A stretch of DNA of 64,000 nt from Eledone cirrhosa. Taxonomy: Eukaryota. The stretch's first letter is position 1; each line of letters begins with the position of its first letter. The position numbers and the translations under genes are program-made. Positions 11,051 through 62,387 of the stretch are shown here, piece after piece. The stretch lies in NCBI GenBank assembly GCA_964016885.1, contig OZ024743.1, positions 354,950,001 through 355,014,000 of the forward strand, written 5' to 3'. Under the pieces are notes generated by a model. The model ran no database searches. It was not told the origin of the DNA and saw nothing but the letters and a program-made list of their open reading frames with translations.

Positions 11051-11424
11051 ATTTGTATTAAAAAAACACAACGGCCATAGTGGAGTTTGATATGTTCCCA
11101 ACCGAATATGTAACGTAGTCCCTAAAAGATGTATCACTATGTGTGCTTCATTGATAGAGGTTGGTTACAAGGAAGTGTGTGCTTGGTCTTTCTTCAAATC
11201 TGAGCGCGAGGTGATACTAGATGGTGTCACAATAGATTAAAGGACATAATGCGAGGGTCACATCAAAGGAACATAGATGATGACGTTCGTTCTTAGTATT
11301 TATCAACAATACGGTCAGGTGGAGATCGCTGATGTTTTATGAACTCACACGTAATCGGGTTCGGTTTCCCTAAGCATGCAAGTTCTGATAACCCGTTGGT
11401 ACCTTGATTCCTTTGCTTCTCTTC

Positions 11425-12420: not shown

Positions 12421-12459
12421 GTACTGCTTTCTCTTGTTTTGGTGGTCCTGGAGTTGAGC

Positions 12460-29141: not shown

Positions 29142-29793
29142 TGTGAGTGTGTGTATTTTAAGGATAATTTGTGAATAAATGTTTCTGCAATTGCGTTACA
29201 GACTCCATTGTTTCCTTGAGTAGTATTGGTAATGGTGGTGCTGAAAGCTTTAGTAGTACTAGTAGCTAAAGTTGTTTTAGTATCAGTAGCCGATGTTGTA
29301 GTGTTTATGGAAGTGATAATCTAGTAGTTAATACTATTGGTATTAGTATCGGTAGCAATTACAAATGGTGGTGAATGTGATACTTTTGTTGTAGTTGTTT
29401 GTAGCTGTGGTGTTGGTGATGATAATTGAGCTTAGTGGTTGTGGTGGTGACATTGTTAGCGCCGATATTATTGTCAATAATTGTTGTTGGTGGTGGTGTT
29501 GGTGGTGGTAGTGGTGGTAGTGGTCGTGGTGGTGGTGTGGTGGTGGTGTGAGTGTTGGTGGTGGTGGTGCGAGTGATGGTGGTGGTGGTAAGGATAAAAA
29601 ATATTAACTATGGAATCATTGACAATAAAAATACTGAAAGCTATTGCCTTCAGAAGAAATTTTAATGCTGCAATTATGGCAACAACAATACGACAACAAT
29701 AACAACTGCAGCAAGCTAAAACAACAGCAATAACAATAACAACAACAACAAAACAACAATAATAATAATAATAATATTAATAATAATAATAAT

Positions 29794-34834: not shown

Positions 34835-34962
34835 GAGATTGTCGTGTATGAACCTGGCTGAGATTGGGCAAGTAAACGCCTCCCCAACCAAATCCGCTAC
34901 TCTATCTGACTCGCCACTCTCCCCGAACAACCGAGCAAAGTGCTGGCGAAAGGCCTCACACA
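34835..34962 (-). pseudogene. Remnant of a further copy of the older Tx1 family (RT fragment with internal deletion)
   Basis: Similar to 31721-31781 joined to 32157-32229 through the shared hexamer AAATCC; it abuts (AAT)10. Confidence 0.85.

Positions 34963-34992
<30 letters not shown>
34963..34992. repeat. (AAT)10 target/tail tract
   Basis: Directly read. Confidence 0.99.
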
Positions 34993-34994
<2 letters not shown>

Positions 34995-35255
34995 TTTCTT
35001 TATTAACCACAAGGGTTTACATAAAGTAGACATTAAGGACAGTGCAGGACAATGCAGGACGGTACAAATGGGCATTTCTGCGTGTAAAAAAACAAAAACA
35101 GAGGATGTAACAAAAATAACAATGAAAATAACAATGAAAAATTCCCCAATAGGGGGGGGGACTTCGGAGGGACATTTGTGGAGAAAGCCCAGTAAAAAGC
35201 CACAATGACCCTGACCACCAAGGCAAGTGCCCTCTCCCAGTTTTCCACCTTTAGT

Positions 35256-38200
35256 TTACAGATATATACTCAGAGTCGGCCCATTCACTCGGGCCATTCT
35301 TGCTTCTCTCACCCATCTTTCAACAAAATGCTGGGAAGAGAGCTCTTCCTTCTCTACTCTGATTTTCCTTTTCAAATGAAATTTGAAAAAGTCAATCAGA
35401 GCATCACCGAAGAGGTAAGTGCTCGTCTTCAGCCCTTTCAAACGTGTCCACCATACTATCTCTTTCGCCATGGCCACCAGACAGATAAAAACTGCCTGCC
35501 CTTCCCGGCTAAAGGAGGAGGGCGGGGCAATCCTCACGATAGACTCAGATGATAGCTGGATCCGTCCTAAACGCGACAGCAGGTGTTCGACATAAACCCA
35601 CAAGTCAGCAATTTTCGGACACTGGACGAGTGCGTGCAGGACGGTTTCGTCGCCCTGCGCGCATCTCGGACATGCCCGGCTGACGGCACCTCCATGCCTG
35701 TAGAGTTTATCCCGAACTGGCAAGGCTCCTCGGTAGCACTGCCAGGCCAGAGATTTCTGGAAGTTGTCCATAGGCCCCGGCCCGAAAGTTCTTCCGAAGA
35801 GATTGGCTAGTTGATTTTCGTCGACGCCTAGAGTTTCCCCAAGTACGTCGTCGCTCTTCCCCTCCACTAATCCTCTATAGAACGCCGAGGTGGAGTTTCC
35901 ACCGATCACATTGCCCGATTGGTCGAGGGCTGTGAGCGCCTGAAGACATTCCAGTCTCCAGGCGCTCCCTCTCGGTCTTCGCTTGACCCAGGACTGCAGC
36001 TCCGTCAAGGAAACGAGCTGGGGAAAAACGCGTCTAGCAAACGGCGACCACACCTGATCACCGTCGAGGAAGAGGTGGAGATGTCGTAGCCTGAGCGCGT
36101 GCCTGCGCATCATCAGCCACGGCATGCCCAGCCCTCCACGTAGCGGGTGTTGACAACAGATGGACCGCCTGACCATCGGAGCACGTCCCTTCCACAAAAA
36201 GCGAAAGAGCAAACGCTCCAGCGCAGTCAAGCGAGGCTTAGGACAAGGTACAACGGTTAGGCGGTAGCAGATGACAGACGCGATGTACGCGTTAGCCACC
36301 TCCGCTCGACCTTTCAGGGATAGCTTCCTCTCCGCCCATTTCTGGGTGAGAGAAGCCACCCTGCTCGTCACCTCGTCCCAGTTTTTGTCCGTCTGGAGGT
36401 CCGGACCGAACCAGACCCCTAGCAATTTAACCGGTCCGTCCGTCCAGCGCCCGACGACGCTGTTGGACGGCATGAACCTGCCTCTCCAGGTGCCGAGCTG
36501 CAGGCCCACTGACTTTTCCTGGTTGATCATTGCTCCTGTCACCGCTTCGTATTCTCTTAGTGTAGTGCCGATCGCCTCGATGTGTTTGGCGTTCGACACC
36601 ACTACGGTGACATCGTCCGCATATGCTGACACGGATCTTCCGCATCCTAGTTCGCGCGGGACTCCCCTCAACGTCTCCAGTTTGTGCAGTAATGGCTCGA
36701 GAGTCAATACGTACAAGAGGGACGAGAGGGGACATCCTTGGCGGACCGAGCGCATGATGTTGAACGGTTCCGACAGGTGACCGTTCACTCTCACCACAGA
36801 GCAGATGTCGCTGTGCATGGCAGCGATCCAGCCTCTGAAGACGGGCCCAAAGCCAGCCGCCCTCAGGACTGCCGCTAGGTAACGATGGTCGACCCTATCG
36901 AAAGCTTTCGACTGATCTAAATTGATCAAGGACCCACCCGTGCCAGGTTCCCTAGCTACCCTCTCTACGATGTATCGCATGAGGTGGAGGTTGTCGTGGA
37001 TGGATCTGTCGGGAATGGCGCATGTCTGCGCCTCTCCCACCAGACCACCAACGACAAGCGCCAACCTCTTTGCTAGCACCTTGGCCAAAATCTTAAACTC
37101 TGTGTTTAGCAGAGTTATGGGCCGGAAATTGTCTATGTTATCCCCCTTGTTCGGATCCTTTCTCAGCAGTGCCACCGCTCCTCGGCTCACAGAACTGGGA
37201 ATTCTCCCGTTCTGTTCCCAGTTGCAGTAGACGTCCGCCAAGAGGCCTCCGAACAAGTCTGGCATCTGTACGTAAAGTTCATAGGGCAGACCATCCAAAC
37301 CAGGCGATTTACCCCTTGTGCAGCCAGTCATTGCCTCCCGTACTTCAGCGGCTGTTATCGGCTTTTCGCAACACTTCGCCTCAGTGGCCGAGAGCCGCGG
37401 CAGTCCGTCGAGGTAGACACTAAAGTCCATCCCTCTACCCGGCCCCCCGCTGCCCCCGAACAGCTGAGCGAAGTGTCGCTGAAAAGCTTCACACATTTGC
37501 CCGGGATCGAGTAGCATGCGCCCGTCGTGGTCCACCAAAGACCGGATCGTGGCTTTGTTGCCACGACGCGCCTCCGCCACTCGGGCCCATTGAACGGCTT
37601 TCGTCCCCTCGTGTCTGAGAGCACGCACCCTAGCTCTGACAACGCAGCCTTCGTGCTTTGCATTGAAGAATTGGTCAAGGGCCAATTTCGCCGCAAGCAC
37701 GTCGGTCGCAATGCCTTTGCTAAGCGCCTCGTCTAATTTTCTAACTAGTTCTCCCTCTGCTCTATTTTTCTCTATTGCTAAAGCCTTACTAAACCTAATC
37801 GATTCTATTCTAATCGCTCTTTTCAGAGCAAACCACCACTTGTTGTTGACGATGGCCCCCGTCAACGCCCGCTTAACTAGTTCGCTAATCCGGTCTCTGT
37901 AGGCCTTGCGCGCTGGTAAGGACGCGTTTAGCTTCCAGTAGCCGGGTCCTCGTCTATGAAGCCTATCTAAGTCAAGCACACAGGTCACGAATTTGTGGTC
38001 CGTGTAGCTGACTATCTTGAATTGTGGACAGCCTATGCTAGACCTATCTATTTCCCTACAAAATACTCTATCTAGATATGATCTGGATGACCCTATGCGG
38101 TTTGTCCAAGTCCACATTGGCACATTCGGGAAATCCAATCGGTACCTGTCAGACAGTTCAAAACGCCTGAGCAGGTTGGTGAGGCTCTTGCACCCTCCAC

Positions 38201-38675
38201 CCCTATCCGCTAATCCCACACAGTCCCAGCGTGCATCTAAGATCCCGTTCCAGTCGCCCACTAACACTAAAGAGCGGGACGTTCCAAGAAAGGTCTCCAG
38301 ACGCCGGAAGAAATCAGGCCGCCCTGCTCCTGTCGGGGCATAGACGGCCACTAGCCTGAAAGCTTGCCCGTCTCCGCTGGTCACGTCCAGCACCACCAGC
38401 TTACCCTCTGGGTCCAGGAAGATGGCCTGTATGGCGAGATCCAAACCTCTCCGAAAAAGTACAGCAACTCCTCCACCGGATCCAGGACGGCTGGGAGATG
38501 CGTACACATCGTAGCCGCCGAAGATCGGTGCGAAGGCCCGTGCTTCGGAGATTCTGGTCTCGCTGATGGCCACTACATCTATGTTTAGTGACCTGAGGTC
38601 GTTGAGCAGGTGACCCTGCTTCCATGACGACCCCAAGCCACGCGCATTTATGCTGCCTATTCTGAGTGAGGTCAT
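35256..38675 (-). CDS. ORF2: APE endonuclease, reverse transcriptase, C-terminal Cys/His domain (1139 aa)
   Basis: SINARGL, SET, VYAP, GDWN, LDR, TDH (APE); KSPGLDGL, FRPITLLN, DQSKAFD, SVRQGCPLS, YADD (RT); CPRC...H...C. Confidence 0.97.
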   Translation of the reverse strand: MTSLRIGSINARGLGSSWKQGHLLNDLRSLNIDVVAISETRISEARAFAPIFGGYDVYASPSRPGSGGGVAVLFRRGLDLAIQAIFLDPEGKLVVLDVTSGDGQAFRLVAVYAPTGAGRPDFFRRLETFLGTSRSLVLVGDWNGILDARWDCVGLADRGGGCKSLTNLLRRFELSDRYRLDFPNVPMWTWTNRIGSSRSYLDRVFCREIDRSSIGCPQFKIVSYTDHKFVTCVLDLDRLHRRGPGYWKLNASLPARKAYRDRISELVKRALTGAIVNNKWWFALKRAIRIESIRFSKALAIEKNRAEGELVRKLDEALSKGIATDVLAAKLALDQFFNAKHEGCVVRARVRALRHEGTKAVQWARVAEARRGNKATIRSLVDHDGRMLLDPGQMCEAFQRHFAQLFGGSGGPGRGMDFSVYLDGLPRLSATEAKCCEKPITAAEVREAMTGCTRGKSPGLDGLPYELYVQMPDLFGGLLADVYCNWEQNGRIPSSVSRGAVALLRKDPNKGDNIDNFRPITLLNTEFKILAKVLAKRLALVVGGLVGEAQTCAIPDRSIHDNLHLMRYIVERVAREPGTGGSLINLDQSKAFDRVDHRYLAAVLRAAGFGPVFRGWIAAMHSDICSVVRVNGHLSEPFNIMRSVRQGCPLSSLLYVLTLEPLLHKLETLRGVPRELGCGRSVSAYADDVTVVVSNAKHIEAIGTTLREYEAVTGAMINQEKSVGLQLGTWRGRFMPSNSVVGRWTDGPVKLLGVWFGPDLQTDKNWDEVTSRVASLTQKWAERKLSLKGRAEVANAYIASVICYRLTVVPCPKPRLTALERLLFRFLWKGRAPMVRRSICCQHPLRGGLGMPWLMMRRHALRLRHLHLFLDGDQVWSPFARRVFPQLVSLTELQSWVKRRPRGSAWRLECLQALTALDQSGNVIGGNSTSAFYRGLVEGKSDDVLGETLGVDENQLANLFGRTFGPGPMDNFQKSLAWQCYRGALPVRDKLYRHGGAVSRACPRCAQGDETVLHALVQCPKIADLWVYVEHLLSRLGRIQLSSESIVRIAPPSSFSREGQAVFICLVAMAKEIVWWTRLKGLKTSTYLFGDALIDFFKFHLKRKIRVEKEELSSQHFVERWVREARMARVNGPTLSIYL

Positions 38676-38710
38676 GTTTAAAATAGAGTGGAAAAGATGG
38701 GAAAGACCAC

Positions 38711-40777
38711 TTACCGTACTTTTGGTAGAGGAGGGATGGTTTTTACATCCCTTTTCACTTGATCGTCTGGTGAAGGGACTGTTGAATCGTCCCTTCGGCT
38801 GGTCGTCGGCTCTTCTAAGAGAATGTCTGAGTATACTCTTCGATTGATGGTTCCTCCCAGGTCCCTGAAATCACCAACTGCGTTGGGGAATTTCGTTTTA
38901 ATATTTGTGTATTGTTTCTGTGCTATTTTTAGCAGTCTTATGTTAGTTGGCGTTTTGATTGGTGCTGGTATTATGTAGTCCTGTTGTGAAATGTCTGTGT
39001 GTTCAATTATGTAAGTCATTAGTTTCTTGTTGTGTGTATTTATTGCCGTGCATTTGTTTTTCTGGGGGTGGGGTGTGGTTCTGCTATTTTCTTGTCGTTG
39101 TTGCTGGGTGTGTGTGTTTTGTTGTTGTGTTTGCGATGTTGGTGCTTGTGGTGGTGGTGTTGAAGGTGTTGTTGGCGGTGGGGTTGTCGCCGGTGGTGAT
39201 GGTGGCGCTAGTGTGGGTGGTGATGGTGTTGGTGTTGTTGCTGCTGTGGGTCTCTTTGCAGTAGACTTTACCCTTTTCTCATTTCTTTCCTCCCTTTTCA
39301 AAGGCGACGATGCGCTGCTTCTGCGTTTGTGCCTTCTTACGACCTTTTGCCATCTCTCTCCCACCTCACACTCCATGTCTGATTCTGTGAGGTCGGGGAG
39401 GGGTACCAACTCCACTCTTTCACTTGTTGTTGTTGGTGATGTTTGCACTGGAGTCTCTGTTGCAGCTGCATTTGGTATTGCTGTTGTTGTTGTTAATATT
39501 TCCACTGCTGCTGCTGTTTTTGATTTCCGTGGAGTGGGTATGGGTGCCACGGGCCTATCGTTCCTGGTTGCCGCTTGTCCTGTTGCTGGTAGCCGTGGAG
39601 CCGGATTCGGAAGGAGGGGGGTTTTCTCCTTTCTCAGGGTCTTCTCGTTGCAGAAGGCCCTGAGGTGAGTCTTCGATCCACAGCGAAAGCATTTCGGGCG
39701 TTTGCCCTCAACACTTATGGGCAGTTGAGTGCCGTTATCGAAGTCTATCACATCCGGGATAGCTTCGATGCACTCCTGGTTGGTTTGGATTAGCATCTCA
39801 ATGGAGGAGCCGACCCAATCTTCTCTTACTTTTTTCTGTACTTGCAGTACAGTTGTTTTGTCCTCGATTCCGACGAGGATAGACGCGGCCAGCCAAGAAG
39901 GGGTCATTCCGGGGGGGACGTGGGTCAGTTTGACCCTCACAATTTTTTGCCCGCAGTAGGAGGGCACCAACACCATTTCCTCGCTCCTTAGGGTCACTAC
40001 TGATTGGGCCTTTGCCTCCTGGGGTGTGGCAAAAAGTACGTCTACGGTGGCATATTTTTTGCCTCGGGTGATGTGCGTTTTCCGCTGCCACACAGACCCC
40101 AAGGCTTTTTGTATTTGGGCCTCTGTGGCTCTTTCCACCCTACGGGATTTTGTACTTACTGTACGGTACGTGACCGTACAGTGCTCTTGGGTTTTGAAAA
40201 ATTTTTCCGCTGCCTTGCAGATTGCTCGGTGTCCGTTCTTTGTCACCATCTTCTTCGCTTCCTCTAATTCCTCATTTGTTATGAGGATTGTTTCCAAGTT
40301 TTTCGCAATACCTGCAAATGAGATTGGTTTTTCTCTGCTGTTGTTGTTGTCGTCAGAGCTGCTGGTACTTTTGTTGTTGCTGCAGGTACTACGACTACTG
40401 CCTCCGCCGCTGTTGCTGTGGTTGTTGTTGGTGTTGCTGGTGATGCTGTTGCGGCTGCTACTGTTGTTTTCATTGTCACTGTTGCTGTTGTTATTACGGC
40501 TGCTACTGCTATTATTCCTGACGTCAGACGAATGAACTGGGTTTTCGTATTTCCCGCACACCTGTTTCGTCGCTGTCGTCGTCGTCGTGGAGAAACCTTG
40601 CACGCTTTGCACGAGACTTTTCTTTTCTTTCGTCACTTGCGAAAGAGAAGGGAGGGAGAGAGACACATTTAAAGAAGGGAGGGAGAGAGACAATCTTCTC
40701 TCTGCTGTAGTGATGATTGAGGAAGAAGAAGACGGAATGAGTGGGAGTGACGTATGAAATTTCTTTTTTGTAGCCAT
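38711..40777 (-). CDS. ORF1: gag-like nucleic-acid-binding protein with CCHC zinc knuckle (688 aa)
   Basis: Lies upstream of ORF2; CFRCGSKTHLRAFC knuckle; SFAGIAK motif; S/N-rich and P/T-rich low-complexity regions. Confidence 0.93.
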   Translation of the reverse strand: MATKKKFHTSLPLIPSSSSSIITTAERRLSLSLPSLNVSLSLPSLSQVTKEKKSLVQSVQGFSTTTTTATKQVCGKYENPVHSSDVRNNSSSSRNNNSNSDNENNSSSRNSITSNTNNNHSNSGGGSSRSTCSNNKSTSSSDDNNNSREKPISFAGIAKNLETILITNEELEEAKKMVTKNGHRAICKAAEKFFKTQEHCTVTYRTVSTKSRRVERATEAQIQKALGSVWQRKTHITRGKKYATVDVLFATPQEAKAQSVVTLRSEEMVLVPSYCGQKIVRVKLTHVPPGMTPSWLAASILVGIEDKTTVLQVQKKVREDWVGSSIEMLIQTNQECIEAIPDVIDFDNGTQLPISVEGKRPKCFRCGSKTHLRAFCNEKTLRKEKTPLLPNPAPRLPATGQAATRNDRPVAPIPTPRKSKTAAAVEILTTTTAIPNAAATETPVQTSPTTTSERVELVPLPDLTESDMECEVGERWQKVVRRHKRRSSASSPLKREERNEKRVKSTAKRPTAATTPTPSPPTLAPPSPPATTPPPTTPSTPPPQAPTSQTQQQNTHTQQQRQENSRTTPHPQKNKCTAINTHNKKLMTYIIEHTDISQQDYIIPAPIKTPTNIRLLKIAQKQYTNIKTKFPNAVGDFRDLGGTINRRVYSDILLEEPTTSRRDDSTVPSPDDQVKRDVKTIPPLPKVR

Positions 40778-40992
40778 GTTGTTTTTTGTTTAAAATGAAA
40801 TTTTGGGTACAAAACCCCAATAACTGGTTATTTAACCCCGAAGGGCCAAATAACGGACAGAAAGACCCCTCTCACGAGGTGGAGGGTGTCTTTATCAACA
40901 ATTTGGTTCAAGTTTTAAACAATTTACAATTGTTTTAACGGTTAAAAATTACTATACCTTACAGAGCCGAGCCTCCGTCAACCATGGCATTC

Positions 40993-41031
<39 letters not shown>
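40993..41031. repeat. (AAT)13 spacer between copies 1 and 2
   Basis: Directly read. Confidence 0.99.
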
Positions 41032-41033
<2 letters not shown>

Positions 41034-41294
41034 TTTCTTTATTAACCACAAGGGTTTACATAAAGTAGACATTAAGGACAGTGCAGGACAATGCAGGACG
41101 GTACAAATGGGCATTTCTGCGTGTAAAAAAACAAAAACAGAGGATGTAACAAAAATAACAATGAAAATAACAATGAAAAATTCCCCAATAGGGGGGGAGA
41201 CTTCGGAGGGACATTTGTGGAGAAAGCCCAGTAAAAAGCCACAATGACCCTGACCACCAAGGCAAGTGCCCTCTCCCAGTTTTCCACCTTTAGT

Positions 41295-44200
41295 TTACAG
41301 ATATATACTCAGAGTCGGCCCATTCACTCGGGCCATTCTTGCTTCTCTCACCCATCTTTCAACAAAATGCTGGGAAGAGAGGACTTCCTTCTCTACTCTG
41401 ATTTTCCTTTTCAAATGAAATTTGAAAAAGTCAATCAGAGCATCACCGAAGAGGTAAGTGCTCGTCTTCAGCCCTTTCAAACGTGTCCACCATACTATCT
41501 CTTTCGCCATGGCCACCAGACAGATAAAAACTGCCTGCCCTTCCCGGCTAAAGGAGGAGGGCGGGGCAATCCTCACGATAGACTCAGATGATAGCTGGAT
41601 CCGTCCTAAACGCGACAGCAGGTGTTCGACATAAACCCACAAGTCAGCAATTTTCGGACACTGGACGAGTGCGTGCAGGACGGTTTCGTCGCCCTGCGCG
41701 CATCTCGGACATGCCCGGCTGACGGCACCTCCATGCCTGTAGAGTTTATCCCGAACTGGCAAGGCTCCTCGGTAGCACTGCCAGGCCAGAGATTTCTGGA
41801 AGTTGTCCATAGGCCCTGGCCCGAAAGTTCTTCCGAAGAGATTGGCTAGTTGATTTTCGTCGACGCCTAGAGTTTCCCCAAGTACGTCGTCGCTCTTCCC
41901 CTCCACTAATCCTCTATAGAACGCCGAGGTGGAGTTTCCACCGATCACATTGCCCGATTGGTCGAGGGCTGTGAGCGCCTGAAGACATTCCAGTCTCCAG
42001 GCGCTCCCTCTCGGTCTTCGCTTGACCCAGGACTGCAGCTCCGTCAAGGAAACGAGCTGGGGAAAAACGCGTCTAGCAAACGGCGACCACACCTGATCAC
42101 CGTCGAGGAAGAGGTGGAGATGTCGTAGCCTGAGCGCGTGCCTGCGCATCATCAGCCACGGCATGCCCAGCCCTCCACGTAGCGGGTGTTGACAACAGAT
42201 GGACCGCCTGACCATCGGAGCACGTCCCTTCCACAAAAAGCGAAAGAGCAAACGCTCCAGCGCAGTCAGGCGAGGCTTAGGACAAGGTACGACGGTTAGG
42301 CGGTAGCAGATGACAGACGCGATGTACGCGTTAGCCACCTCCGCTCGACCTTTCAGGGATAGCTTCCTCTCCGCCCATTTCTGGGTGAGAGAAGCCACCC
42401 TGCTCGTCACCTCGTCCCAGTTTTTGTCCGTCTGGAGGTCCGGACCGAACCAGACCCCTAGCAATTTAACCGGTCCGTCCGTCCAGCGCCCGACGACGCT
42501 GTTGGACGGCATGGACCTGCCTCTCCAGGTGCCGAGCTGCAGGCCCACTGACTTTTCCTGGTTGATCATTGCTCCTGTCACCGCTTCGTATTCTCTTAGT
42601 GTAGTGCCGATCGCCTCGATGTGTTTGGCGTTCGACACCACTACGGTGACATCGTCGGCATATGCTGACACGGATCTTCCGCATCCTAGTTCGCGCGGGA
42701 CTCCCCTCAACGTCTCCAGTTTGTGCAGTAATGGCTCGAGAGTCAATACGTACAAGAGGGACGAGAGGGGACATCCTTGGCGGACCGAGCGCATGATGTT
42801 GAACGGTTCCGACAGGTGACCGTTCACTCTCACCACAGAGCAGATGTCGCTGTGCATGGCAGCGATCCAGCCTCTGAAGACGGGCCCAAAGCCAGCCGCC
42901 CTCAGGACTGCCCCTAGGTAACGATGGTCGACCCTATCGAAAGCTTTCGACTGATCTAAATTGATCAAGGACCCACCCGTGCCAGGTTCCCTAGCTACCC
43001 TCTCTACGATGTATCGCATGAGGTGGAGGTTGTCGTGGATGGATCTGTCGGGGATGGCGCATGTCTGCGCCTCTCCCACCAGACCACCAACGACAAGCGC
43101 CAACCTCTTTGCTAGCACCTTGGCCAAAATCTTAAACTCTGTGTTTAGCAGAGTTATGGGCCGGAAATTGTCTATGTTATCCCCCTTGTTCGGATCCTTT
43201 CTCAGCAGTGCCACCGCTCCTCGGCTCACAGAACTGGGAATTCTCCCGTTCTGTTGCCAGTTGCAGTAGACGTCCGCCAAGAGGCCTCCGAACAAGTCTG
43301 GCATCTGTACGTAAAGTTCATAGGGCAGACCATCCAAACCAGGCGATTTACCCCTTGTGCAGCCAGTCATTGCCTCCCGTATTTCAGCGGCTGTTATCGG
43401 CTTTTCGCAACACCTCGCCTCAGTGGCCGAGAGCCGCGGCAGTCCGTCGAGGTAGACACTAAAGTCCATCCCTCTACCCGGCCCCCCGCTGCCCCCGAAC
43501 AGCTGAGCGAAGTGTCGCTGAAAAGCTTCACACATTTGCCCGGGATCGAGTAGCATGCGCCCGTCGTGGTCCACCAAAGACCGGATCGTGGCTTTGTTGC
43601 CACGACGCGCCTCCGCCACTCGGGCCCATTGAACGGCTTTCGTCCCCTCGTGTCTGAGAGCACGCACCCTAGCTCTGACAACGCAGCCTTCGTGCTTTGC
43701 ATTGAAGAATTGGTCAAGGGCCAATTTCGCCGCAAGCACGTCGGTCGCAATGCCTTTGCTAAGCGCCTCGTCTAATTTTCTAACTAGTTCTCCCTCTGCT
43801 CTATTTTTCTCTATTGCTAAAGCCTTACTAAACCTAATCGATTCTATTCTAATCGCTCTTTTCAGAGCAAACCACCACTTGTTGTTGACGATGGCCCCCG
43901 TCAACGCCCGCTTAACTAGTTCGCTAATCCGGTCTCTGTAGGCCTTGCGCGCTGGTAAGGACGCGTTTAGCTTCCAGTAGCCGGGTCCTCGTCTATGAAG
44001 CCTATCTAAGTCAAGCACACAGGTCACGAATTTGTGGTCCGTGTAGCTGACTATCTTGAATTGTGGACAGCCTATGCTAGACCTATCTATTTCCCTACAA
44101 AATACTCTATCTAGATATGATCTGGATGACCCTATGCGGTTTGTCCAAGTCCACATTGGCACATTCGGGAAATCCAATCGGTACCTGTCAGACAGTTCAA

Positions 44201-44714: not shown

Positions 44715-44749
44715 GTTTAAAATAGAGTGGAAAAGATGGGAAAGACCAC

Positions 44750-46816
44750 TTACCGTACTTTTGGTAGAGGAGGGATGGTTTTTACATCCCTTTTCACTTG
44801 ATCGTCTGGTGAAGGGACCGTTGAATCGTCCCTTCGGCTGGTCGTCGGCTCTTCTAAGAGAATGTCTGAATATACTCTTCGATTAATGGTTCCTCCTAGG
44901 TCCCTGAAATCACCAACAGCGTTGGGGAATTTCGTTTTAATGTTTGTGTATTGTTTCTGTGCTATTTTTAGCAGTCTTATGTTAGTTGGCGTTTTGATTG
45001 GTGCTGGTATTATGTAGTCCTGTTGTGAAATGTCTGTGTGTTCAATTATGTAAGTCATTAGTTTCTTGTTGTGTGTGTTTATTGCCGTGCATTTGTTTTT
45101 CTGGGGGTGGGGTGTGGTTCTGCTATTTTCTTGTCGTTGTTGCTGGGTGTGTGTGTTTTGTTGTTGTGTTTGCGATGTTGGTGCTTGTGGTGGTGGTGTT
45201 GAAGGTGTTGTTGGCGGTGGGGTTGTCGCGGGTGGTGATGGTGGTGCTGGTGTGGGTGGTGATGGTGTTGGTGGTGTTGCTGCTGTGGGTCTCTTTGCAG
45301 TAGACTTTACCCTTTTCTCATTTCTTTCCTCCCTTTTCAAAGGCGACGATGCGCTGCTTCTGCGTTTGTGCCTTCTTACGACCTTTTGCCATCTCTCTCC
45401 CACCTCACACTCCATGTCTGATTCTGTGAGGTCGGGGAGGGGTACCAACTCCACTCTTTCACTTGTTGTTGTTGGTGATGTTTGCACTGGAGTCTCTGTT
45501 GCAGCTGCATTTGGTATTGCTGTTGTTGTTGTTAATATTTCCACTGCTGCTGCTGTTTTTGATTTCCGTGGAGTGGGTATGGGTGCCACGGGCCTATCGT
45601 TCCTGGTTGCCGCTTGTCCTGTTGCTGGTAGCCGTGGAGCCGGATTCGGAAGGAGGGGGGTTTTCTCCTTTCTCAGGGTCTTCTCGTTGCAGAAGGCCCT
45701 GAGGTGAGTCTTCGATCCACAGCGAAAGCATTTCGGGCGTTTGCCCTCAACACTTATGGGCAGTTGAGTGCCGTTATCGAAGTCTATCACATCCGGGATA
45801 GCTTCGATGCACTCCTGGTTGGTTTGGATTAGCATCTCAATGGAGGAGCCGACCCAATCTTCTCTTACTTTTTTCTGTACTTGCAGTACAGTTGTTTTGT
45901 CCTCGATTCCGACGAGGACAGACGCGGCCAGCCAAGAAGGGGTCATTCCGGGGGGGACGTGGGTCAGTTTGACCCTCACAATTTTTTGCCCGCAGTAGGA
46001 GGGCACCAACACCATTTCCTCGCTCCTTAGGGTCACTACTGATTGGGCCTTTGCCTCCTGGGGTGTGGCAAAAAGTACGTCTACGGTGGCATATTTTTTG
46101 CCTCGGGTGATGTGCGTTTTCCGCTGCCACACAGACCCCAAGGCTTTTTGTATTTGGGCCTCTGTGGCTCTTTCCACCCTACGGGATTTTGTACTTACTG
46201 TACGGTACGTGACCGTACAGTGCTCTTGGGTTTTGAAAAATTTTTCCGCTGCCTTGCAGATTGCTCGGTGTCCGTTCTTTGTCACCATCTTCTTCGCTTC
46301 CTCTAATTCCTCATTTGTTATGAGGATTGTTTCCAAGTTTTTCGCAATACCTGCAAATGAGATTGGTTTTTCTCTGCTGTTGTTGTTGTCGTCAGAGCTG
46401 CTGGTACTTTTGTTGTTGCTGCAGGTACTACGACTACTGCCTCCGCCGCTGTTGCTGTGGTTGTTGTTGGTGTTGCTGGTGATGCTGTTGCGGCTGCTAC
46501 TGTTGTTTTCATTGTCACTGTTGCTGTTGTTATTACGGCTGCTACTGCTATTATTCCTGACGTCAGACGAATGAACTGGGTTTTCGTATTTCCCGCACAC
46601 CTGTTTCGTCGCTGTCGTCGTCGTCGTGGAGAAACCTTGCACGCTTTGCACGAGACTTTTCTTTTCTTTCGTCACTTGCGAAAGAGAAGGGAGGGAGAGA
46701 GACACATTTAAAGAAGGGAGGGAGAGAGACAATCTTCTCTCTGCTGTAGTGATGATTGAGGAAGAAGAAGACGGAATGAGTGGGAGTGACGTATGAAATT
46801 TCTTTTTTGTAGCCAT
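44750..46816 (-). CDS. ORF1 (688 aa), copy 2
   Basis: Intact, with the CCHC knuckle. Confidence 0.93.
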   Translation of the reverse strand: MATKKKFHTSLPLIPSSSSSIITTAERRLSLSLPSLNVSLSLPSLSQVTKEKKSLVQSVQGFSTTTTTATKQVCGKYENPVHSSDVRNNSSSSRNNNSNSDNENNSSSRNSITSNTNNNHSNSGGGSSRSTCSNNKSTSSSDDNNNSREKPISFAGIAKNLETILITNEELEEAKKMVTKNGHRAICKAAEKFFKTQEHCTVTYRTVSTKSRRVERATEAQIQKALGSVWQRKTHITRGKKYATVDVLFATPQEAKAQSVVTLRSEEMVLVPSYCGQKIVRVKLTHVPPGMTPSWLAASVLVGIEDKTTVLQVQKKVREDWVGSSIEMLIQTNQECIEAIPDVIDFDNGTQLPISVEGKRPKCFRCGSKTHLRAFCNEKTLRKEKTPLLPNPAPRLPATGQAATRNDRPVAPIPTPRKSKTAAAVEILTTTTAIPNAAATETPVQTSPTTTSERVELVPLPDLTESDMECEVGERWQKVVRRHKRRSSASSPLKREERNEKRVKSTAKRPTAATPPTPSPPTPAPPSPPATTPPPTTPSTPPPQAPTSQTQQQNTHTQQQRQENSRTTPHPQKNKCTAINTHNKKLMTYIIEHTDISQQDYIIPAPIKTPTNIRLLKIAQKQYTNIKTKFPNAVGDFRDLGGTINRRVYSDILLEEPTTSRRDDSTVPSPDDQVKRDVKTIPPLPKVR

Positions 46817-47031
46817 GTTGTTTTTTGTTTAAAATGAAATTTTGGGTACAAAACCCCAATAACTGGTTATTTAACCCCGAAGGGCCAAATAACGGACAGA
46901 AAGACCCCTCTCACGAGGTGGAGGGTGTCTTTATCAACAATTTGGTTCAAGTTTTAAACAATTTACAATTGTTTTAACGGTTAAAAATTACTATACCTTA
47001 CAGAGCCGAGCCTCCGTCAACCATGGCATTC

Positions 47032-47076
<45 letters not shown>
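47032..47076. repeat. (AAT)15 spacer between copies 2 and 3
   Basis: Directly read. Confidence 0.99.
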
Positions 47077-47078
<2 letters not shown>

Positions 47079-47339
47079 TTTCTTTATTAACCACAAGGGT
47101 TTACATAAAGTAGACATTAAGGACAGTGCAGGACAATGCAGGACGGTACAAATGGGCATTTCTGCGTGTAAAAAAAACAAAAACAGAGGATGTAACAAAA
47201 ATAACAATGAAAATAACAATGAAAAATTCCCCAATAGGGGGGAGACTTCGGAGGGACATTTGTGGAGAAAGCCCAGTAAAAAGCCACAATGACCCTGACC
47301 ACCAAGGCAAGTGCCCTCTCCCAGTTTTCCACCTTTAGT

Positions 47340-50300
47340 TTACAGATATATACTCAGAGTCGGCCCATTCACTCGGGCCATTCTTGCTTCTCTCACCCAT
47401 CTTTCAACAAAATGCTGGGAAGAGAGCACTTCCTTCTCTACTCTGATTTTCCTTTTCAAATGAAATTTGAAAAAGTCAATCAGAGCATCACCGAAGAGGT
47501 AAGTGCTCGTCTTCAGCCCTTTCAAACGTGTCCACCATACTATCTCTTTCGCCATGGCCACCAGACAGATAAAAACTGCCTGCCCTTCCCGGCTAAAGGA
47601 AGAGGGCGGGGCAATCCTCACGATAGACTCAGATGATAGCTGGATCCGTCCTAAACGCGACAGCAGGTGTTCGACATAAACCCACAAGTCAGCAATTTTC
47701 GGACACTGGACGAGTGCGTGCAGGACGGTTTCGTCGCCCTGCGCGCATCTCGGACATGCCCGGCTGACGGCACCTCCATGCCTGTAGAGTTTATCCCGAA
47801 CTGGCAAGGCTCCTCGGTAGCACTGCCAGGCCAGAGATTTCTGGAAGTTGTCCATAGGCCCCGGCCCGAAAGTTCTTCCGAAGAGATTGGCTAGTTGATT
47901 TTCGTCGACGCCTAGAGTTTCCCCAAGTACGTCGTCGCTCTTCCCCTCCACTAATCCTCTATAGAACGCCGAGGTGGAGTTTCCACCGATCACATTGCCC
48001 GATTGGTCGAGGGCTGTGAGCGCCTGAAGACATTCCAGTCTCCAGGCGCTCCCTCTCGGTCTTCGCTTGACCCAGGACTGCAGCTCCGTCAAGGAAACGA
48101 GCTGGGGAAAAACGCGTCTAGCAAACGGCGACCACACCTGATCACCGTCGAGGAAGAGGTGGAGATGTCGTAGCCTGAGCGCGTGCCTGCGCATCATCAG
48201 CCACGGCATGCCCAGCCCTCCACGTAGCGGGTGTTGACAACAGATGGACCGCCTGACCATCGGAGCACGTCCCTTCCACAAAAAGCGAAAGAGCAAACGC
48301 TCCAGCGCAGTCAGGCGAGGCTTAGGACAAGGTACGACGGTTAGGCGGTAGCAGATGACAGACGCGATGTACGCGTTAGCCACCTCCGCTCGACCTTTCA
48401 GGGATAGCTTCCTCTCCGCCCATTTCTGGGTGAGAGAAGCCACCCTGCTCGTCACCTCGTCCCAGTTTTTGTCCGTCTGGAGGTCCGGACCGAACCAGAC
48501 CCCTAGCAATTTAACCGGTCCGTCCGTCCAGCGCCCGACGACGCTGTTGGACGGCATGGACCTGCCTCTCCAGGTGCCGAGCTGCAGGCCCACTGACTTT
48601 TCCTGGTTGATCATTGCTCCTGTCACTGCTTCGTATTCTCTTAGTGTAGTGCCGATCGCCTCGATGTGTTTGGCGTTCGACACCACTACGGTGACATCGT
48701 CCGCATATGCTGACACGGATCTTCCGCATCCTAGTTCGCGCGGGACTCCCCTCAACGTCTCCAGTTTGTGCAGTAATGGCTCGAGAGTCAATACGTACAA
48801 GAGGGACGAGAGGGGACATCCTTGGCGGACCGAGCGCATGATGTTGAACGGTTCCGACAGGTGACCGTTCACTCTCACCACAGAGCAGATGTCGCTGTGC
48901 ATGGCAGCGATCCAGCCTCTGAAGACGGGCCCAAAGCCAGCCGCCCTCAGGACTGCCGCTAGGTAACGATGGTCGACCCTATCGAAAGCTTTCGACTGAT
49001 CTAAATTGATCAAGGACCCACCCGTGCCAGGTTCCCTAGCTACCCTCTCTACGATGTATCGCATGAGGTGGAGGTTGTCGTGGATGGATCTGTCGGGAAT
49101 GGCGCATGTCTGCGCCTCTCCCACCAGACCACCAACGACAAGCGCCAACCTCTTTGCTAGCACCTTGGCCAAAATCTTAAACTCTGTGTTTAGCAGAGTT
49201 ATGGGCCGGAAATTGTCTATGTTATCCCCCTTGTTCGGATCCTTTCTCAGCAGTGCCACCGCTCCTCGGCTCACAGAACTGGGAATTCTCCCGTTCTGTT
49301 GCCAGTTGCAGTAGACGTCCGCCAAGAGGCCTCCGAACAAGTCTGGCATCTGTACGTAAAGTTCATAGGGCAGACCATCCAAACCAGGCGATTTACCCCT
49401 TGTGCAGCCAGTCATTGCCTCCCGTACTTCAGCGGCTGTTATTGGCTTTTCGCAACACTTCGCCTCAGTGGCCGAGAGCCGCGGCAGTCCGTCGAGGTAG
49501 ACACTAAAGTCCATCCCTCTACCCGGCCCCCCGCTGCCCCCGAAAAGCTGAGCGAAGTGTCGCTGAAAAGCTTCACACATTTGCCCGGGATCGAGTAGCA
49601 TGCGCCCGTCGTGGTCCACCAAAGACCGGATCGTGGCTTTGTTGCCACGACGCGCCTCCGCCACTCGGGCCCATTGAACGGCTTTCGTCCCCTCGTGTCT
49701 GAGAGCACGCACCCTAGCTCTGACAACGCAGCCTTCGTGCTTTGCATTGAAGAATTGGTCAAGGGCCAATTTCGCCGCAAGCACGTCGGTCGCAATGCCT
49801 TTGCTAAGCGCCTCGTCTAATTTTCTAACTAGTTCTCCCTCTGCTCTATTTTTCTCTATTGCTAAAGCCTTACTAAACCTAATCGATTCTATTCTAATCG
49901 CTCTTTTCAGAGCAAACCACCACTTGTTGTTGACGATGGCCCCCGTCAACGCCCGCTTAACTAGTTCGCTAATCCGGTCTCTGTAGGCCTTGCGCGCTGG
50001 TAAGGACGCGTTTAGCTTCCAGTAGCCGGGTCCTCGTCTATGAAGCCTATCTAAGTCAAGCACACAGGTCACGAATTTGTGGTCCGTGTAGCTGACTATC
50101 TTGAATTGTGGACAGCCTATGCTAGACCTATCTATTTCCCTACAAAATACTCTATCTAGATATGATCTGGATGACCCTATGCGGTTTGTCCAAGTCCACA
50201 TTGGCACATTCGGGAAATCCAATCGGTACCTGTCAGACAGTTCAAAACGCCTGAGCAGGTTGGTGAGGCTCTTGCACCCTCCACCCCTATCCGCTAATCC

Positions 50301-50759
50301 CACACAGTCCCAGCGTGCATCTAAGATCCCGTTCCAGTCGCCCACTAACACTAAAGAGCGGGACGTTCCAAGAAAGGTCTCCAGACGCCGGAAGAAATCA
50401 GGCCGCCCTGCTCCTGTCGGGGCATAGACGGCCACTAGCCTGAAAGCTTGCCCGTCTCCGCTGGTCACGTCCAGCACCACCAGCTTACCCTCTGGGTCCA
50501 GGAAGATGGCCCGTATGGCGAGATCCAAACCTCTCCGAAAAAGCACAGCAACTCCTCCACCGGATCCAGGACGGCTGGGAGATGCGTACACATCGTAGCC
50601 GCCGAAGATCGGTGCGAAGGCCCGTGCTTCGGAGATTCTGGTCTCGCTGATGGCCACTACATCTATGTTTAGTGACCTGAGGTCGTTGAGCAGGTGACCC
50701 TGCTTCCATGACGACCCCAAGCCACGCGCATTTATGCTGCCTATTCTGAGTGAGGTCAT
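47340..50759 (-). CDS. ORF2 APE-RT (1139 aa), copy 3
   Basis: Intact. Confidence 0.97.
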   Translation of the reverse strand: MTSLRIGSINARGLGSSWKQGHLLNDLRSLNIDVVAISETRISEARAFAPIFGGYDVYASPSRPGSGGGVAVLFRRGLDLAIRAIFLDPEGKLVVLDVTSGDGQAFRLVAVYAPTGAGRPDFFRRLETFLGTSRSLVLVGDWNGILDARWDCVGLADRGGGCKSLTNLLRRFELSDRYRLDFPNVPMWTWTNRIGSSRSYLDRVFCREIDRSSIGCPQFKIVSYTDHKFVTCVLDLDRLHRRGPGYWKLNASLPARKAYRDRISELVKRALTGAIVNNKWWFALKRAIRIESIRFSKALAIEKNRAEGELVRKLDEALSKGIATDVLAAKLALDQFFNAKHEGCVVRARVRALRHEGTKAVQWARVAEARRGNKATIRSLVDHDGRMLLDPGQMCEAFQRHFAQLFGGSGGPGRGMDFSVYLDGLPRLSATEAKCCEKPITAAEVREAMTGCTRGKSPGLDGLPYELYVQMPDLFGGLLADVYCNWQQNGRIPSSVSRGAVALLRKDPNKGDNIDNFRPITLLNTEFKILAKVLAKRLALVVGGLVGEAQTCAIPDRSIHDNLHLMRYIVERVAREPGTGGSLINLDQSKAFDRVDHRYLAAVLRAAGFGPVFRGWIAAMHSDICSVVRVNGHLSEPFNIMRSVRQGCPLSSLLYVLTLEPLLHKLETLRGVPRELGCGRSVSAYADDVTVVVSNAKHIEAIGTTLREYEAVTGAMINQEKSVGLQLGTWRGRSMPSNSVVGRWTDGPVKLLGVWFGPDLQTDKNWDEVTSRVASLTQKWAERKLSLKGRAEVANAYIASVICYRLTVVPCPKPRLTALERLLFRFLWKGRAPMVRRSICCQHPLRGGLGMPWLMMRRHALRLRHLHLFLDGDQVWSPFARRVFPQLVSLTELQSWVKRRPRGSAWRLECLQALTALDQSGNVIGGNSTSAFYRGLVEGKSDDVLGETLGVDENQLANLFGRTFGPGPMDNFQKSLAWQCYRGALPVRDKLYRHGGAVSRACPRCAQGDETVLHALVQCPKIADLWVYVEHLLSRLGRIQLSSESIVRIAPPSSFSREGQAVFICLVAMAKEIVWWTRLKGLKTSTYLFGDALIDFFKFHLKRKIRVEKEVLSSQHFVERWVREARMARVNGPTLSIYL

Positions 50760-50794
50760 GTTTAAAATAGAGTGGAAAAGATGGGAAAGACCAC

Positions 50795-52888
50795 TTACCG
50801 TACTTTTGGTAGAGGAGGGATGGTTTTTACATCCCTTTTCACTTGATCGTCTGGTGAAGGGACCGTTGAATCGTCCCTTCGGCTGGTCGTCGGCTCTTCT
50901 AAGAGAATGTCTGAATATACTCTTCGATTAATGGTTCCTCCTAGGTCCCTGAAATCACCAACTGCGTTGGGGAATTTCGTTTTAATGTTTGTGTATTGTT
51001 TCTGTGCTATTTTTAGCAGTCTTATGTTAGTTGGCGTTTTGATTGGTGCTGGTATTATGTAGTCCTGTTGTGAAATGTCTGTGTGTTCAATTATGTAAGT
51101 CATTAGTTTCTTGTTGTGTGTGTTTATTGCCGTGCATTTGTTTTTCTGGGGGTGGGGTGTGGTTCTGCTATTTTCTTGTCGTTGTTGCTGGGTGTGTGTG
51201 TTTTGTTGTTGTGTTTGCGATGTTGGTGCTTGTGGTGGTGGTGTTGAAGGTGTTGTTGGCGGTGGGGTTGTCGCCGGTGGTGATGGTGGTGCTGGTGTGG
51301 GTGGTGATGGTGTTGGTGGTGTTGCTGCTGTGGGTCTCTTTGCAGTAGACTTTACCCTTTTCTCATTTCTTTCCTCCCTTTTCAAAGGCGACGATGCGCT
51401 GCTTCTGCGTTTGTGCCTTCTTACGACCTTTTGCCATCCCTCTCCCACCTCACACTCCATGTCTGATTCTGTAAGGTCGGGGAGGGGTACCAGCTCCACT
51501 CTTTCACTTGTTGTTGTTGGTGATGTTTGCACTGGAGTCTCTGTTGCAGCTGCATTTGGTATTGCTGTTGTTGTTGTTAATATTTCCACTGCTGCTGCTG
51601 TCTTTGATTTCCGTGGAGTGGGTATGGGTGCCACGGACCTATCGTTCCTGGTTGCCGCTTGTCCTGTTGCTGGTAGCCGTGGAACCGGATTCGGGAGGAG
51701 GGGGGTTTTCTCCTTTCTCATGGTCTTCTCGTTGCAGAAGGCCCTGAGGTGAGTCTTCGATCCACAGCGAAAGCATTTCGGGCGTTTGCCCTCAACACTT
51801 ATGGGCAGTTGAGTGCCGTTATCGAAGTCTATCACATCCGGGATAGCTTCGATGCACTCCTGGTTGGTTTGGATTAGCATCTCAATGGAGGAGCCGACCC
51901 AATCTTCTCTTATTTTTTTCTGTACTTGCAGTACAGTTGTTTTGTCCTCGATTCCGACGAGGACAGACGCGGCCAGCCAAGAAGGGGTCATTCCGGGGGG
52001 GACGTGGGTCAGTTTGACCCTCACAATTTTTTGCCCACAGTAGGAGGGCACCAACACCATTTCCTCGCTCCTTAGGGTCACTACTGATTGGGCCTTTGCC
52101 TCCTGGGGTGTGGCAAAAAGTACGTCTACGGTGGCGTATTTTTTGCCTCGGGTGATGTGCGTTTTCCTCTGCCACACAGACCCCAAGGCTTTTTGTATTT
52201 GGGCCTCTGTGGCTCTTTCCACCCTACGGGATTTTGTACTTACTGTACGGTACGTGACCGTACAGTGCTCTTGGGTTTCGAAAAAATTTTTCGCTGCCTT
52301 GCAGATTGCTCGGTGTCCGTTCTTTGTCACCATCTTCTTCGCTTCCTCTAATTCCTCATTTGTTATGAGGATTGTTTCCAGGTTTTTCGCAATACCTGCA
52401 AATGAGATTGGTTTTTCTCTGCTGTTGTTGTTGTCGTCAGAGCTGCTGGTACTTTTGTTGCTGCAGGTACTACGACTACTGCCTCCGCCGCTGTTGCTGT
52501 GGTTGTTGTTGGTGTTGCTGCTGCTAATGCTGTTGTTGTTTATGCTGCTGGTGATGCTGTTGCGGCTGCTACTGTTGTTTTCATTGTCACTGTTGCTGTT
52601 GTTATTACGGCTGCTACTGCTATTATTCCTGACGTCAGACGAATGAACTGGGTTTTCGTATTTCCCGCACACCTGTTTCGTCGCTGTCGTCGTCGTCGTG
52701 GAGAAACCTTGCACGCTTTGCACGAGACTTTTCTTTTCTTTCGTGGCTTGCGAAAGAGAAGGGAGGGAGAGAGACACATTTAAAGAAGGGAGGGAGAGAG
52801 ACAATCTTCTCTCTGCTGTAGTGATGATTGAGGAAGAAGAAGACGGAATGAGTGGGAGTGACGTATGAAATTTCTTTTTGGTAGCCAT
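50795..52888 (-). CDS. ORF1 (697 aa from MATKKK), copy 3
   Basis: ATG homologous to copies 1 and 2; net +9 aa in the S/N-rich region. Confidence 0.92.
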   Translation of the reverse strand: MATKKKFHTSLPLIPSSSSSIITTAERRLSLSLPSLNVSLSLPSLSQATKEKKSLVQSVQGFSTTTTTATKQVCGKYENPVHSSDVRNNSSSSRNNNSNSDNENNSSSRNSITSSINNNSISSSNTNNNHSNSGGGSSRSTCSNKSTSSSDDNNNSREKPISFAGIAKNLETILITNEELEEAKKMVTKNGHRAICKAAKNFFETQEHCTVTYRTVSTKSRRVERATEAQIQKALGSVWQRKTHITRGKKYATVDVLFATPQEAKAQSVVTLRSEEMVLVPSYCGQKIVRVKLTHVPPGMTPSWLAASVLVGIEDKTTVLQVQKKIREDWVGSSIEMLIQTNQECIEAIPDVIDFDNGTQLPISVEGKRPKCFRCGSKTHLRAFCNEKTMRKEKTPLLPNPVPRLPATGQAATRNDRSVAPIPTPRKSKTAAAVEILTTTTAIPNAAATETPVQTSPTTTSERVELVPLPDLTESDMECEVGEGWQKVVRRHKRRSSASSPLKREERNEKRVKSTAKRPTAATPPTPSPPTPAPPSPPATTPPPTTPSTPPPQAPTSQTQQQNTHTQQQRQENSRTTPHPQKNKCTAINTHNKKLMTYIIEHTDISQQDYIIPAPIKTPTNIRLLKIAQKQYTNIKTKFPNAVGDFRDLGGTINRRVYSDILLEEPTTSRRDDSTVPSPDDQVKRDVKTIPPLPKVR

Positions 52889-53839
52889 GTTTTTTTGTTT
52901 AAAATGAAATTTTGGGTACAAAACCCCAATAACTGGTTATTTAACCCCGAAGGGCCAAATAACGGACAGAAAGACCCCTCTCACGAGGAGGAGGGTGTCT
53001 TTATCAACAATTTGGTTCAAGTTTTAAACAATTTACAATTGTTTTAACGGTTAAAAATTACTATACCTTACAGAGCCGAGCCTCCGTCAACCATGGCATT
53101 CAATAATAATAATAATAATAATAATAATATAAGGCTCAAATATTCAAATATTCAACTTTGTATTGTACACTGTATATCCAAAAAAGAAAATGGCTATAAA
53201 TGGAAGAAGACCCCCCCTCCTCCTCTGTCTACACTATATAGAACAGCCAAACTCACCAACACCAGAAACTAGATACACCACCCACCCCATCACCTGTGTA
53301 CACTAAACCACCACCGCTCACTACGGCCATCATTACAACCATTATCCCATCACCGCCGCCACCACCCCTTCACTCCTTCACTGCTACCACCGCTACAGCA
53401 CCATCACTACAGTAATACGGTCACATCACCGCCACCACTGCCTCGGTATCGACATCACCACCACCACTGTCTCAGTATCGCTACCGCCGCCAGTCTCCCA
53501 CTTCTTCTTTTAGCTGGCTGCTGCCACCACATTATAGAATCCCTACTGCTAAAAAAGAGGAAGGCATCAAAATATATAGATAGACTCAAAAGAAAAAAGA
53601 AAAAACAAACAACAAAACCAAAGCAGCACAGCAACAACAGCAAAAAACGAGAAAAACAAACAGAGAAAAACAAAAACAAAAACAAACAAAAAAACCCCCC
53701 AAAACATAAAGAAAATAAGAATGAAGAGAGAAGCAGGCGGACGGACAGAGAAGAGCGGGGAAAAACTAAAACTTAAAAAACAAAAACTAAGTCAGACATT
53801 CGAACACTACATTACAATGAAACTTATGCTTATTCATTT

Positions 53840-59674: not shown

Positions 59675-59693
59675 AATAATAATAATAATAATA

Positions 59694-60481: not shown

Positions 60482-60482
<1 letters not shown>
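59694..60482 (+). mobile_element. R4/Dong family B, second, more truncated copy with (TAA)16 tail
   Basis: Matches 58885-59674; it retains RHD and RPDII but has a stop and an indel. Confidence 0.95.
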
Positions 60483-60530
<48 letters not shown>

Positions 60531-62356: not shown

Positions 62357-62387
62357 TAATAACAATAATAATAATAATAATAATAAT

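Follow-up and report, generated by a model that had tools for sequence, protein, structure and literature searches.

The window analysed here, 64,000 nt of Eledone cirrhosa DNA (GCA_964016885.1, OZ024743.1:354,950,001-355,014,000, forward strand), contains three full-length Tx1-like long interspersed nuclear elements (LINEs), designated family A, which lie head to tail on the minus strand and are set in an (AAT)n tract. These copies are real, intact and young, and each carries two open reading frames (ORFs). Target-primed reverse transcription probably produced the three units in separate events, each from a different active source copy, in a family whose target is likely to be (AAT)n/(ATT)n. 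The unit sizes of 6000, 6000 and 6025 bp, the identical termini, the separation by (AAT)10, (AAT)13, (AAT)15 and (AAT)9, and the six open ORFs (two in each of copies 1-3) had been described in the original prediction, and all were confirmed (Table 1). The outermost 30 bases at each end are identical across the three copies, and no N base occurs in the window. A chance origin is excluded for the three-unit repeat itself.

The original prediction had also described the copies as young, unusual in being full-length, and different from each other by only a few substitutions. Youth and intactness were borne out, and the four ORF2 changes that had been quoted (Q83R, E487Q, F734S and E1111V) are present. 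However, each pair of copies differs by 28-42 substitutions, and the ORF1 indel noted for copy 3 proved to be two in-frame indels (+30 and -3 nt), with small indels also in the untranslated regions (UTRs) of this copy. Nor are full-length copies unusual: in Octopus vulgaris, 80 L1-Tx1 families are listed, of which 13 have been active recently and account for 421 near-full-length insertions; recent Dong-R4 insertions number 1129 (PMC13282606 Table 1).

Origin of the three copies

The pairwise comparisons gave 28/6000, 42/5994 and 34/5994 substitutions (0.47-0.70%), with 52 variable columns in total. Among 50 variable coding positions, counted with codons touching indels skipped, 30 are synonymous and 20 non-synonymous; the ratio of non-synonymous to synonymous change (pN/pS) was 0.21-0.27 (p 6e-8 to 5e-6) whichever of three weightings of transitions was applied. 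A pN/pS of about 1 is expected of alleles, or of duplicates, that decay where they stand, and sequencing errors are not biased to silent sites. The synonymous excess thus suggests that the differences arose in source lineages under selection to transpose, and disfavours both an assembly artefact and plain local duplication. Judged by their sequences, the copies derive from different functional source lineages. The published octopus rate places the split of these lineages at 0.65-1.0 Myr, a rough figure that is distinct from the age of the insertions.

Long repeats are difficult to assemble, and haplotypes or paralogues might have been stacked in tandem, or errors might be the source of the differences. 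This explanation is hardly credible. The differences are synonymous-biased, unlike errors, and neither coding indel disrupts the reading frame. Neutral differences would be expected if alleles of one insertion had been stacked, and the window is free of N. In addition, 9 of 19 listed runs (six organism labels, five studies) contained 0.60-0.84 of the sampled words of the element, a result that speaks for the sequence itself but leaves its tandem arrangement unsupported; small shares in three of the 19 runs (0.05-0.10) were not used. One of the nine runs may be the source of the window, but the family occurs in more than a single data set.

Two observations weigh against three independent insertions. 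The copies are mosaic (23 runs across the 52 sites, runs test p 0.001), and copies 1 and 2 show 1 difference in 1757 5' bases, whereas the 3' part of copy 2 differs from copy 3 at 14/4242 positions and from copy 1 at 27/4243, a polarity expected of unequal crossover, with a breakpoint that was picked by eye after the data had been seen. Both would suit a history in which the locus received one or two insertions and then expanded by local unequal crossing-over, in which copy 2 is a hybrid of its neighbours and conversion from dispersed active copies added the differences. We regard this history as improbable. In the 3' part, copies 2 and 3 are separated by 11 synonymous and 3 non-synonymous changes (p 1e-4), unlike neutral alleles or duplicates, and copy 2 therefore cannot be a mere hybrid of copies 1 and 3; it also has 10 private sites, and the four tracts are all of different length. 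Moreover, an older Tx1-like copy (family B), a diverged family A sibling (A4) and a tandem of Dong/R4-like elements in the same window would still require targeted insertion. Later conversion or template switching is likely to have made copies 1 and 2 nearly identical over the 5' 1.76 kb, and such exchange superimposed on independent insertion fits the data best.

The full length of the copies, their precise joins, their distinct functional sources and the mosaicism could be accounted for jointly by a single event, in which the reverse transcriptase (RT), on reaching the 5' end of an RNA, switched to the (AUU)n end of another and left a three-source concatemer. Template jumps have been invoked for Tx1-mobilised SINEU and for R2 (PMC4494074, PMC3774820). 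Such an event would, however, require 18 kb of unbroken synthesis, and the neighbouring tandems mix ages (family B at 73%, A4 at 93%, two Dong families), which points to sequential loading at the locus; the chance that one concatemer explains the array is slight. Independent insertion, which the original prediction had placed ahead of simple unequal crossing-over, is favoured by the synonymous excess.

Probable target preference and proposed mechanism

Within the window, all five clean Tx1 3' ends (family B, copies 1-3 and A4) lie in AAT tracts, as do four of the five visible 5' ends (copies 1-3 and family B), the exception being a very old Tx1-like relic (relic C). The (AAT)9 of copy 3 is the sole 5' tract not explicable as the tail of a neighbouring Tx1 copy, and so provides the one entirely independent test of a 5' junction. 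The 26,351 element-free bases hold 76 AT, 19 AC, 9 AG and 3 AAT tracts, a non-AAT to AAT ratio of 104:3. Kojima classes a family as target-specific when, across the genome, over 20% of its flanks share one sequence type (PMC4494074); the counts given here cover the window only. Orientation, junction phase, the intact catalytic residues and the conserved terminus are direct observations. An identical 3' terminus (AATAAAGAAAT) recurs across four lineages that are 67-93% alike, and family A has no poly(A) at its 3' junction, its tail being (ATT)n despite an AATAAA signal.

The target is likely to be any (AAT)n tract, and not only the element's own tail, since family B lies in an AAC/AAT microsatellite, A4 shares a tract with a Dong-like element, and Dong-like elements are themselves stacked. 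The (ATT)n targeting that had been predicted is likely to hold, but its restriction to insertion into the family's own tail tract probably does not, because family B, A4 and the Dong-like elements occupy the AAT/AAC repeat. The whole of 29680-53128 reads as a single microsatellite interrupted by 23 kb of Tx1 elements.

Several points count against the proposed targeting. The junction evidence comes from one window and from two or three independent sites, RNA may supply the 3' tracts, and of the four 5' tracts three also serve as the tail of an adjacent element. No dispersed family A copy was seen among the collections searched. No ATT tract is present at the 5' end of relic C, which adjoins a Dong-like relic on the minus strand (11391-12448), and no TAA tract was seen directly upstream of the intact Dong-like ORF. 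The beta-hairpin loop of the apurinic/apyrimidinic endonuclease (APE) domain, counted by eye, has 11 residues in all five octopod-type rows that cover it, the same as in human L1. It is longer in Xenopus Tx1L and four vertebrate Tx1 rows, at 13-14 residues, and in 10 of 11 relatives of 40-44% identity, at 13-15; the family A endonuclease thus has a loop of L1 rather than Tx1L length. This loop has been reported to read DNA shape and flexibility more than sequence (PMC1950540), so the difference in its length is no predictor of target.

Separate insertions might instead have been directed by pairing of the RNA tail alone, with nicks made in AT-rich DNA by a relaxed L1-like endonuclease or by Dong or host activities, and with only (AAT)n ends able to prime on (AUU)n; the element would then seek out repeats although its nuclease lacked sequence specificity. 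The L1 length of the loop and the conservation of the tail over four lineages are consistent with this explanation, and L1 integration is more selective than nicking, for which RNA-target pairing is a possible cause (PMC1950540). However, target choice in the Tx1 clade is credited mainly to the endonuclease (PMC4494074), and none of the 76 element-free (AT)n tracts was hit, although tail pairing predicts likewise. Targeting by tail pairing alone is considered unlikely, though less so than the other alternatives to independent, endonuclease-directed insertion.

A mechanism for targeted insertion can be proposed in four steps. First, the APE would nick the AAT strand of the tract. Second, pairing of the (AUU)n end of the RNA with the (AAT)n 3' end released by the nick would prime reverse transcription, a step suggested by the geometry of the five clean 3' junctions; with priming on the (AUU)n end, poly(A) would not be copied although AATAAA is present. 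Third, the 5' end would join the other half of the tract in register, perhaps via upstream AUU repeats on the RNA, by analogy with R2, in which upstream target sequence on the RNA yields uniform, precise 5' junctions (PMC3774820). Fourth, a tract is left at both ends, as seen in the structure of the array, so that the site would have remained a target on which copies stacked one way. The Dong/R4-like elements have another class of nuclease and are inserted in this repeat in reverse orientation, so that their priming would take place on the opposite strand. A further-reaching proposal is that an octopod Tx1 lineage evolved an AAT-strand-specific endonuclease, converging from the opposite strand on the Dong target, with two-way self-renewing sites and with full-length 5' ends secured by AUU repeats at the front of the RNA, and that this lineage is genome-wide, uncatalogued and active; taken together, these points are tentative and open to considerable doubt.

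Coding capacity and affiliation of family A

ORF2 of family A contains an N-terminal APE, an RT and a C-terminal zinc finger, and has Pfam matches exceeding the cut-offs to Exo_endo_phos, RVT_1 and zf-RVT. In copy 1, the endonuclease residues are N10, E39, Y112, D141, N143, D202 and H227, the RT YADD motif is at 685-688 and the zinc finger is at 1002; the catalytic residues align in register with human L1. The gap between the ORF1 stop and the ORF2 start is 35 bases (38676-38710). Whole ORF1 had no Pfam match. An AlphaFold model of ORF1 residues 190-390, built on 54 aligned sequences, had a predicted local distance difference test score (pLDDT) of 91.6, and the best Foldseek matches of this core model were tandem-RRM proteins (top E 5e-5). 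A single CCHC knuckle lies downstream of the predicted RRMs. ESM Atlas matches of ORF1 (0.91-0.94; CCHC and ZCCHC3-type RNA-binding clusters) were taken as a lead only. Type I ORF1, with RRM and CCHC and not Transposase_22, is associated with Tx1 (PMC5203782). Family A has such an ORF1, on the basis of its predicted RRMs, and its two ORFs with the domain order of ORF2 correspond to the anatomy of the Tx1 clade within the L1 group.

The 5' UTR has a predicted fold with a z of -3.35 (1 of 200 shuffles equally good), whereas the 3' UTR folds no better than shuffles (z +0.39). The 5' UTR is predicted to form three successive hairpins, one of them with a 12-bp stem and a cUUCGg loop, and is a candidate translation or processing element. 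It gave nothing at the gathering score in Rfam. A 5' ribozyme was sought with a descriptor of the hepatitis delta virus (HDV) type and a hammerhead core search; both were negative, the HDV-like result being weak as the descriptor was home-made and unvalidated on a known ribozyme.

Family A is Tx1-like by anatomy and scores, as read from its sequence. ORF2 scored 332 bits against Xenopus Tx1L (P14381; P0092; 29% identity over 83% of ORF2), above the 182 bits against human L1 ORF2p. Among named proteins, the best identity is to Argonauta hians (69%); fragments of Octopus bimaculoides (59%) and Acanthosepion (Sepia) pharaonis (46%) also match, and these relatives point to an octopod as the likely host. 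In RT trees, family A forms a clade with the Argonauta and Sepia sequences and the relatives of 40-44% identity, with Shimodaira-Hasegawa (SH) support of 99 (FastTree, 87 rows) and ultrafast bootstrap (UFBoot) support of 100 (IQ-TREE, 36 rows hand-picked from the 87). This clade joined the Tx1L group at UFBoot 70 in the 36-row tree, and its position was not resolved in the 87-row FastTree tree; both trees were built from rows other than canonical L1. The Tx1-clade identity put forward originally is thus carried by the anatomy, while its RT-tree link to Tx1L is weak. The names Kibi, Koshi, Keno and Dewa were absent from the proteins retrieved with Tx1L as query.

Other collections yielded no close relative. 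From 107 metagenome candidates, 55 loci were obtained, and those spanning most of ORF2 were only 23-33% identical, too distant for their termini to be informative about family A. Neither the viral nor the prokaryotic collections yielded a relative (0/81 and 0/9 candidates; 0 matches in a further search), and 50 matches to the 3'-junction motif in prokaryotic genomes were rejected as chance (0/50 resemble the element). An ORF2 fragment of 68% identity (P0185) is filed under a Herbaspirillum metagenome-assembled genome, probably through host contamination of the bin.

The known targets of Tx1 elements include TC, TTC, TTCC and TTTC repeats, small nuclear RNA (snRNA) genes and transposons (PMC4494074). 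Xenopus Tx1L, the best-named archetype of the clade, targets the Tx1D DNA transposon and has a longer endonuclease loop than family A. Kibi at (TC)n, Koshi at (TTC)n and the crocodilian Tx1 elements at (TTCC)n/(TTTC)n are likewise Tx1-type APE LINEs with microsatellite flanks (PMC4494074). Family A differs from these in its probable (ATT)n target and cephalopod host; its flanks are neither (TC)n nor (TTC)n, and identity to the vertebrate Tx1 proteins that carry names is about 30%. Family A is therefore likely to represent a new target for a known repeat-seeking habit of Tx1, as in Kibi and Koshi. A Tx1 element targeting (ATT)n or (AAT)n was not found in the open-licence literature searched, where "(ATT)n" is not literally searchable and from which Repbase Reports stand apart. 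Repbase Reports often record such repeat targets. Further repeat targets may stand in the full target list of PMC4494074 (its Fig. 3), and the passages of PMC8967140, PMC9115989, PMC10294476, PMC3747384 and PMC4758252 give no target data for cephalopod Tx1.

Neighbouring elements and implications

Table 1. Elements, reading frames and repeat tracts located in the window (window positions).
Feature	Positions	Strand	Remarks
Relic C, very old Tx1-like, 67%	12450-14790	+	AATAAAGAAAT end, decayed AAT/ATT tail
Degenerate (AAC/AAT)n microsatellite	29680-29793		likely left half of original target
Family B copy, older Tx1-like	29794-34962	-	frameshifted, 5'-truncated in ORF1, (ATT)n at both ends
(AAT)10	34963-34992		between family B 5' end and copy 1 3' end
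Family A copy 1, Tx1-like, full length	34993-40992	-
3' UTR, copy 1	34993-35255	-	AATAAA at 34999-35004, then six bases, then (ATT)n tail
ORF2, copy 1, 1139 aa	35256-38675	-	APE, RT, C-terminal zinc finger
ORF1, copy 1, 688 aa	38711-40777	-	low complexity at both ends; pair of RRM folds predicted, about aa 199-356; CCHC at aa 363
5' UTR, copy 1	40778-40992	-	strong predicted fold, cUUCGg hairpin
(AAT)13	40993-41031		copy 1/copy 2 spacer
Family A copy 2, full length	41032-47031	-
ORF2, copy 2, 1139 aa	41295-44714	-
ORF1, copy 2, 688 aa	44750-46816	-
(AAT)15	47032-47076		copy 2/copy 3 spacer
Family A copy 3, full length	47077-53101	-
ORF2, copy 3, 1139 aa	47340-50759	-
ORF1, copy 3, 697 aa	50795-52888	-
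(AAT)9	53102-53128		copy 3 5' end
Dong/R4-like, first family	54020-57486	+	intact 1130-aa ORF at 54020-57412, then (AAT)26(AAG)19
Dong/R4-like, second family	57632-59695	+	5'-truncated, TAA tail, 37-52% aa identity to first
Dong/R4-like, second family, shorter copy	59696-60530	+	5'-truncated, TAA tail
Dong/R4-like, first family (93%)	60531-62387	+	5'-truncated, TAA tail shared tail-to-tail with A4
A4, diverged family A sibling, 93%	62388-64000	-	runs past window edge, (ATT)n tail

Family B has the same orientation as copies 1-3 and is 73% identical to family A in DNA over ORF2, and its tail runs into a longer AAC/AAT microsatellite. Two ORF2 scraps (61 and 73 bp, 90-92% to family B ORF2) lie at 34835-34962 on the minus strand, between the (ATT)10 tract and the truncated family B ORF1, and are possibly the deletion remnant of a second B-like copy, i.e. 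of an older tandem. A4 is rearranged at 63931-64000 (near 63933), where element positions 3842-3913 are joined to 4435. At 11391-14790, old Dong-like (minus-strand) and Tx1 (plus-strand) relics stand head to head, again in opposite orientations. The 5' end of copy 3 is separated from that of the Dong-like ORF by approximately 0.9 kb (53129-54019), which includes C-rich and A-rich low-complexity parts.

Four Dong/R4-like units lie in plus-strand tandem, and the last three (57632-62387) are 5'-truncated and stacked head to tail in TAA tails. With two families and three distinct 5' truncations, this tandem could not be produced by duplication of a unit. The single, full-length 1130-aa ORF contains an RT, a CCHC, an RHD and a PD..D nuclease motif, patterns that we take to be those of Dong/R4, and a TAA tail is present; judged by these features, it is a candidate active element. 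The Dong/R4 assignment is one of likeness, based on the motifs, the tail and the fact that Dong-R4 elements are abundant in cephalopods. Dong, DongAg and DongBg insert at TAA microsatellites, and PMC3812793 assigns TAA to Dong only. The same source groups Dong with APE-type elements, contrary both to its placement in the R4 lineage (PMC3774820) and to the motifs observed here. Dong has its repeat target and tandem stacking in common with family A and is itself an occupant of this locus, but it lies in the opposite orientation and its one ORF encodes a restriction-like nuclease at the C terminus, whereas family A has an N-terminal APE.

Two families loading one repeat from opposite orientations are also known from SART and TRAS, which form arrays on one insect telomeric repeat; Tx1-1_ACar occurs on anole telomeres (PMC10088271), and tandem insertion of a site-specific element is on record (PMC4640811). 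SART and TRAS are both telomeric APE elements of the R1 clade, whereas the pair described here combines an APE element (Tx1) with one bearing a restriction-like endonuclease (Dong/R4) at an interstitial microsatellite. If the proposed targeting is true, AAT-specific Tx1 and Dong would constitute a SART/TRAS-like pair across nuclease classes, and the Tx1 clade would gain a new target. The promise as an integration tool that had been seen in family A is, in our judgement, limited, since (AAT)n is abundant and scattered, which makes it weak in comparison with rDNA-specific elements.

What distinguishes this locus? It would allow two nuclease classes, APE and restriction-like, to be compared in a natural setting where they act on opposite strands of one repeat. 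Recognition of microsatellites by APE-type LINEs has been described as "not well understood" (PMC3812793), and the intact proteins at this locus would make it testable whether the endonuclease or the RNA tail is responsible. Family A or a sister may well be present in the O. vulgaris L1-Tx1 library; LINE hotspots have been mapped in that species, and neither a target-site analysis nor an explanation of them was found in the passages of PMC13282606. Overall, insertion at (AAT)n tracts by Tx1-like elements bears on the clustering of young LINEs in octopus genomes.

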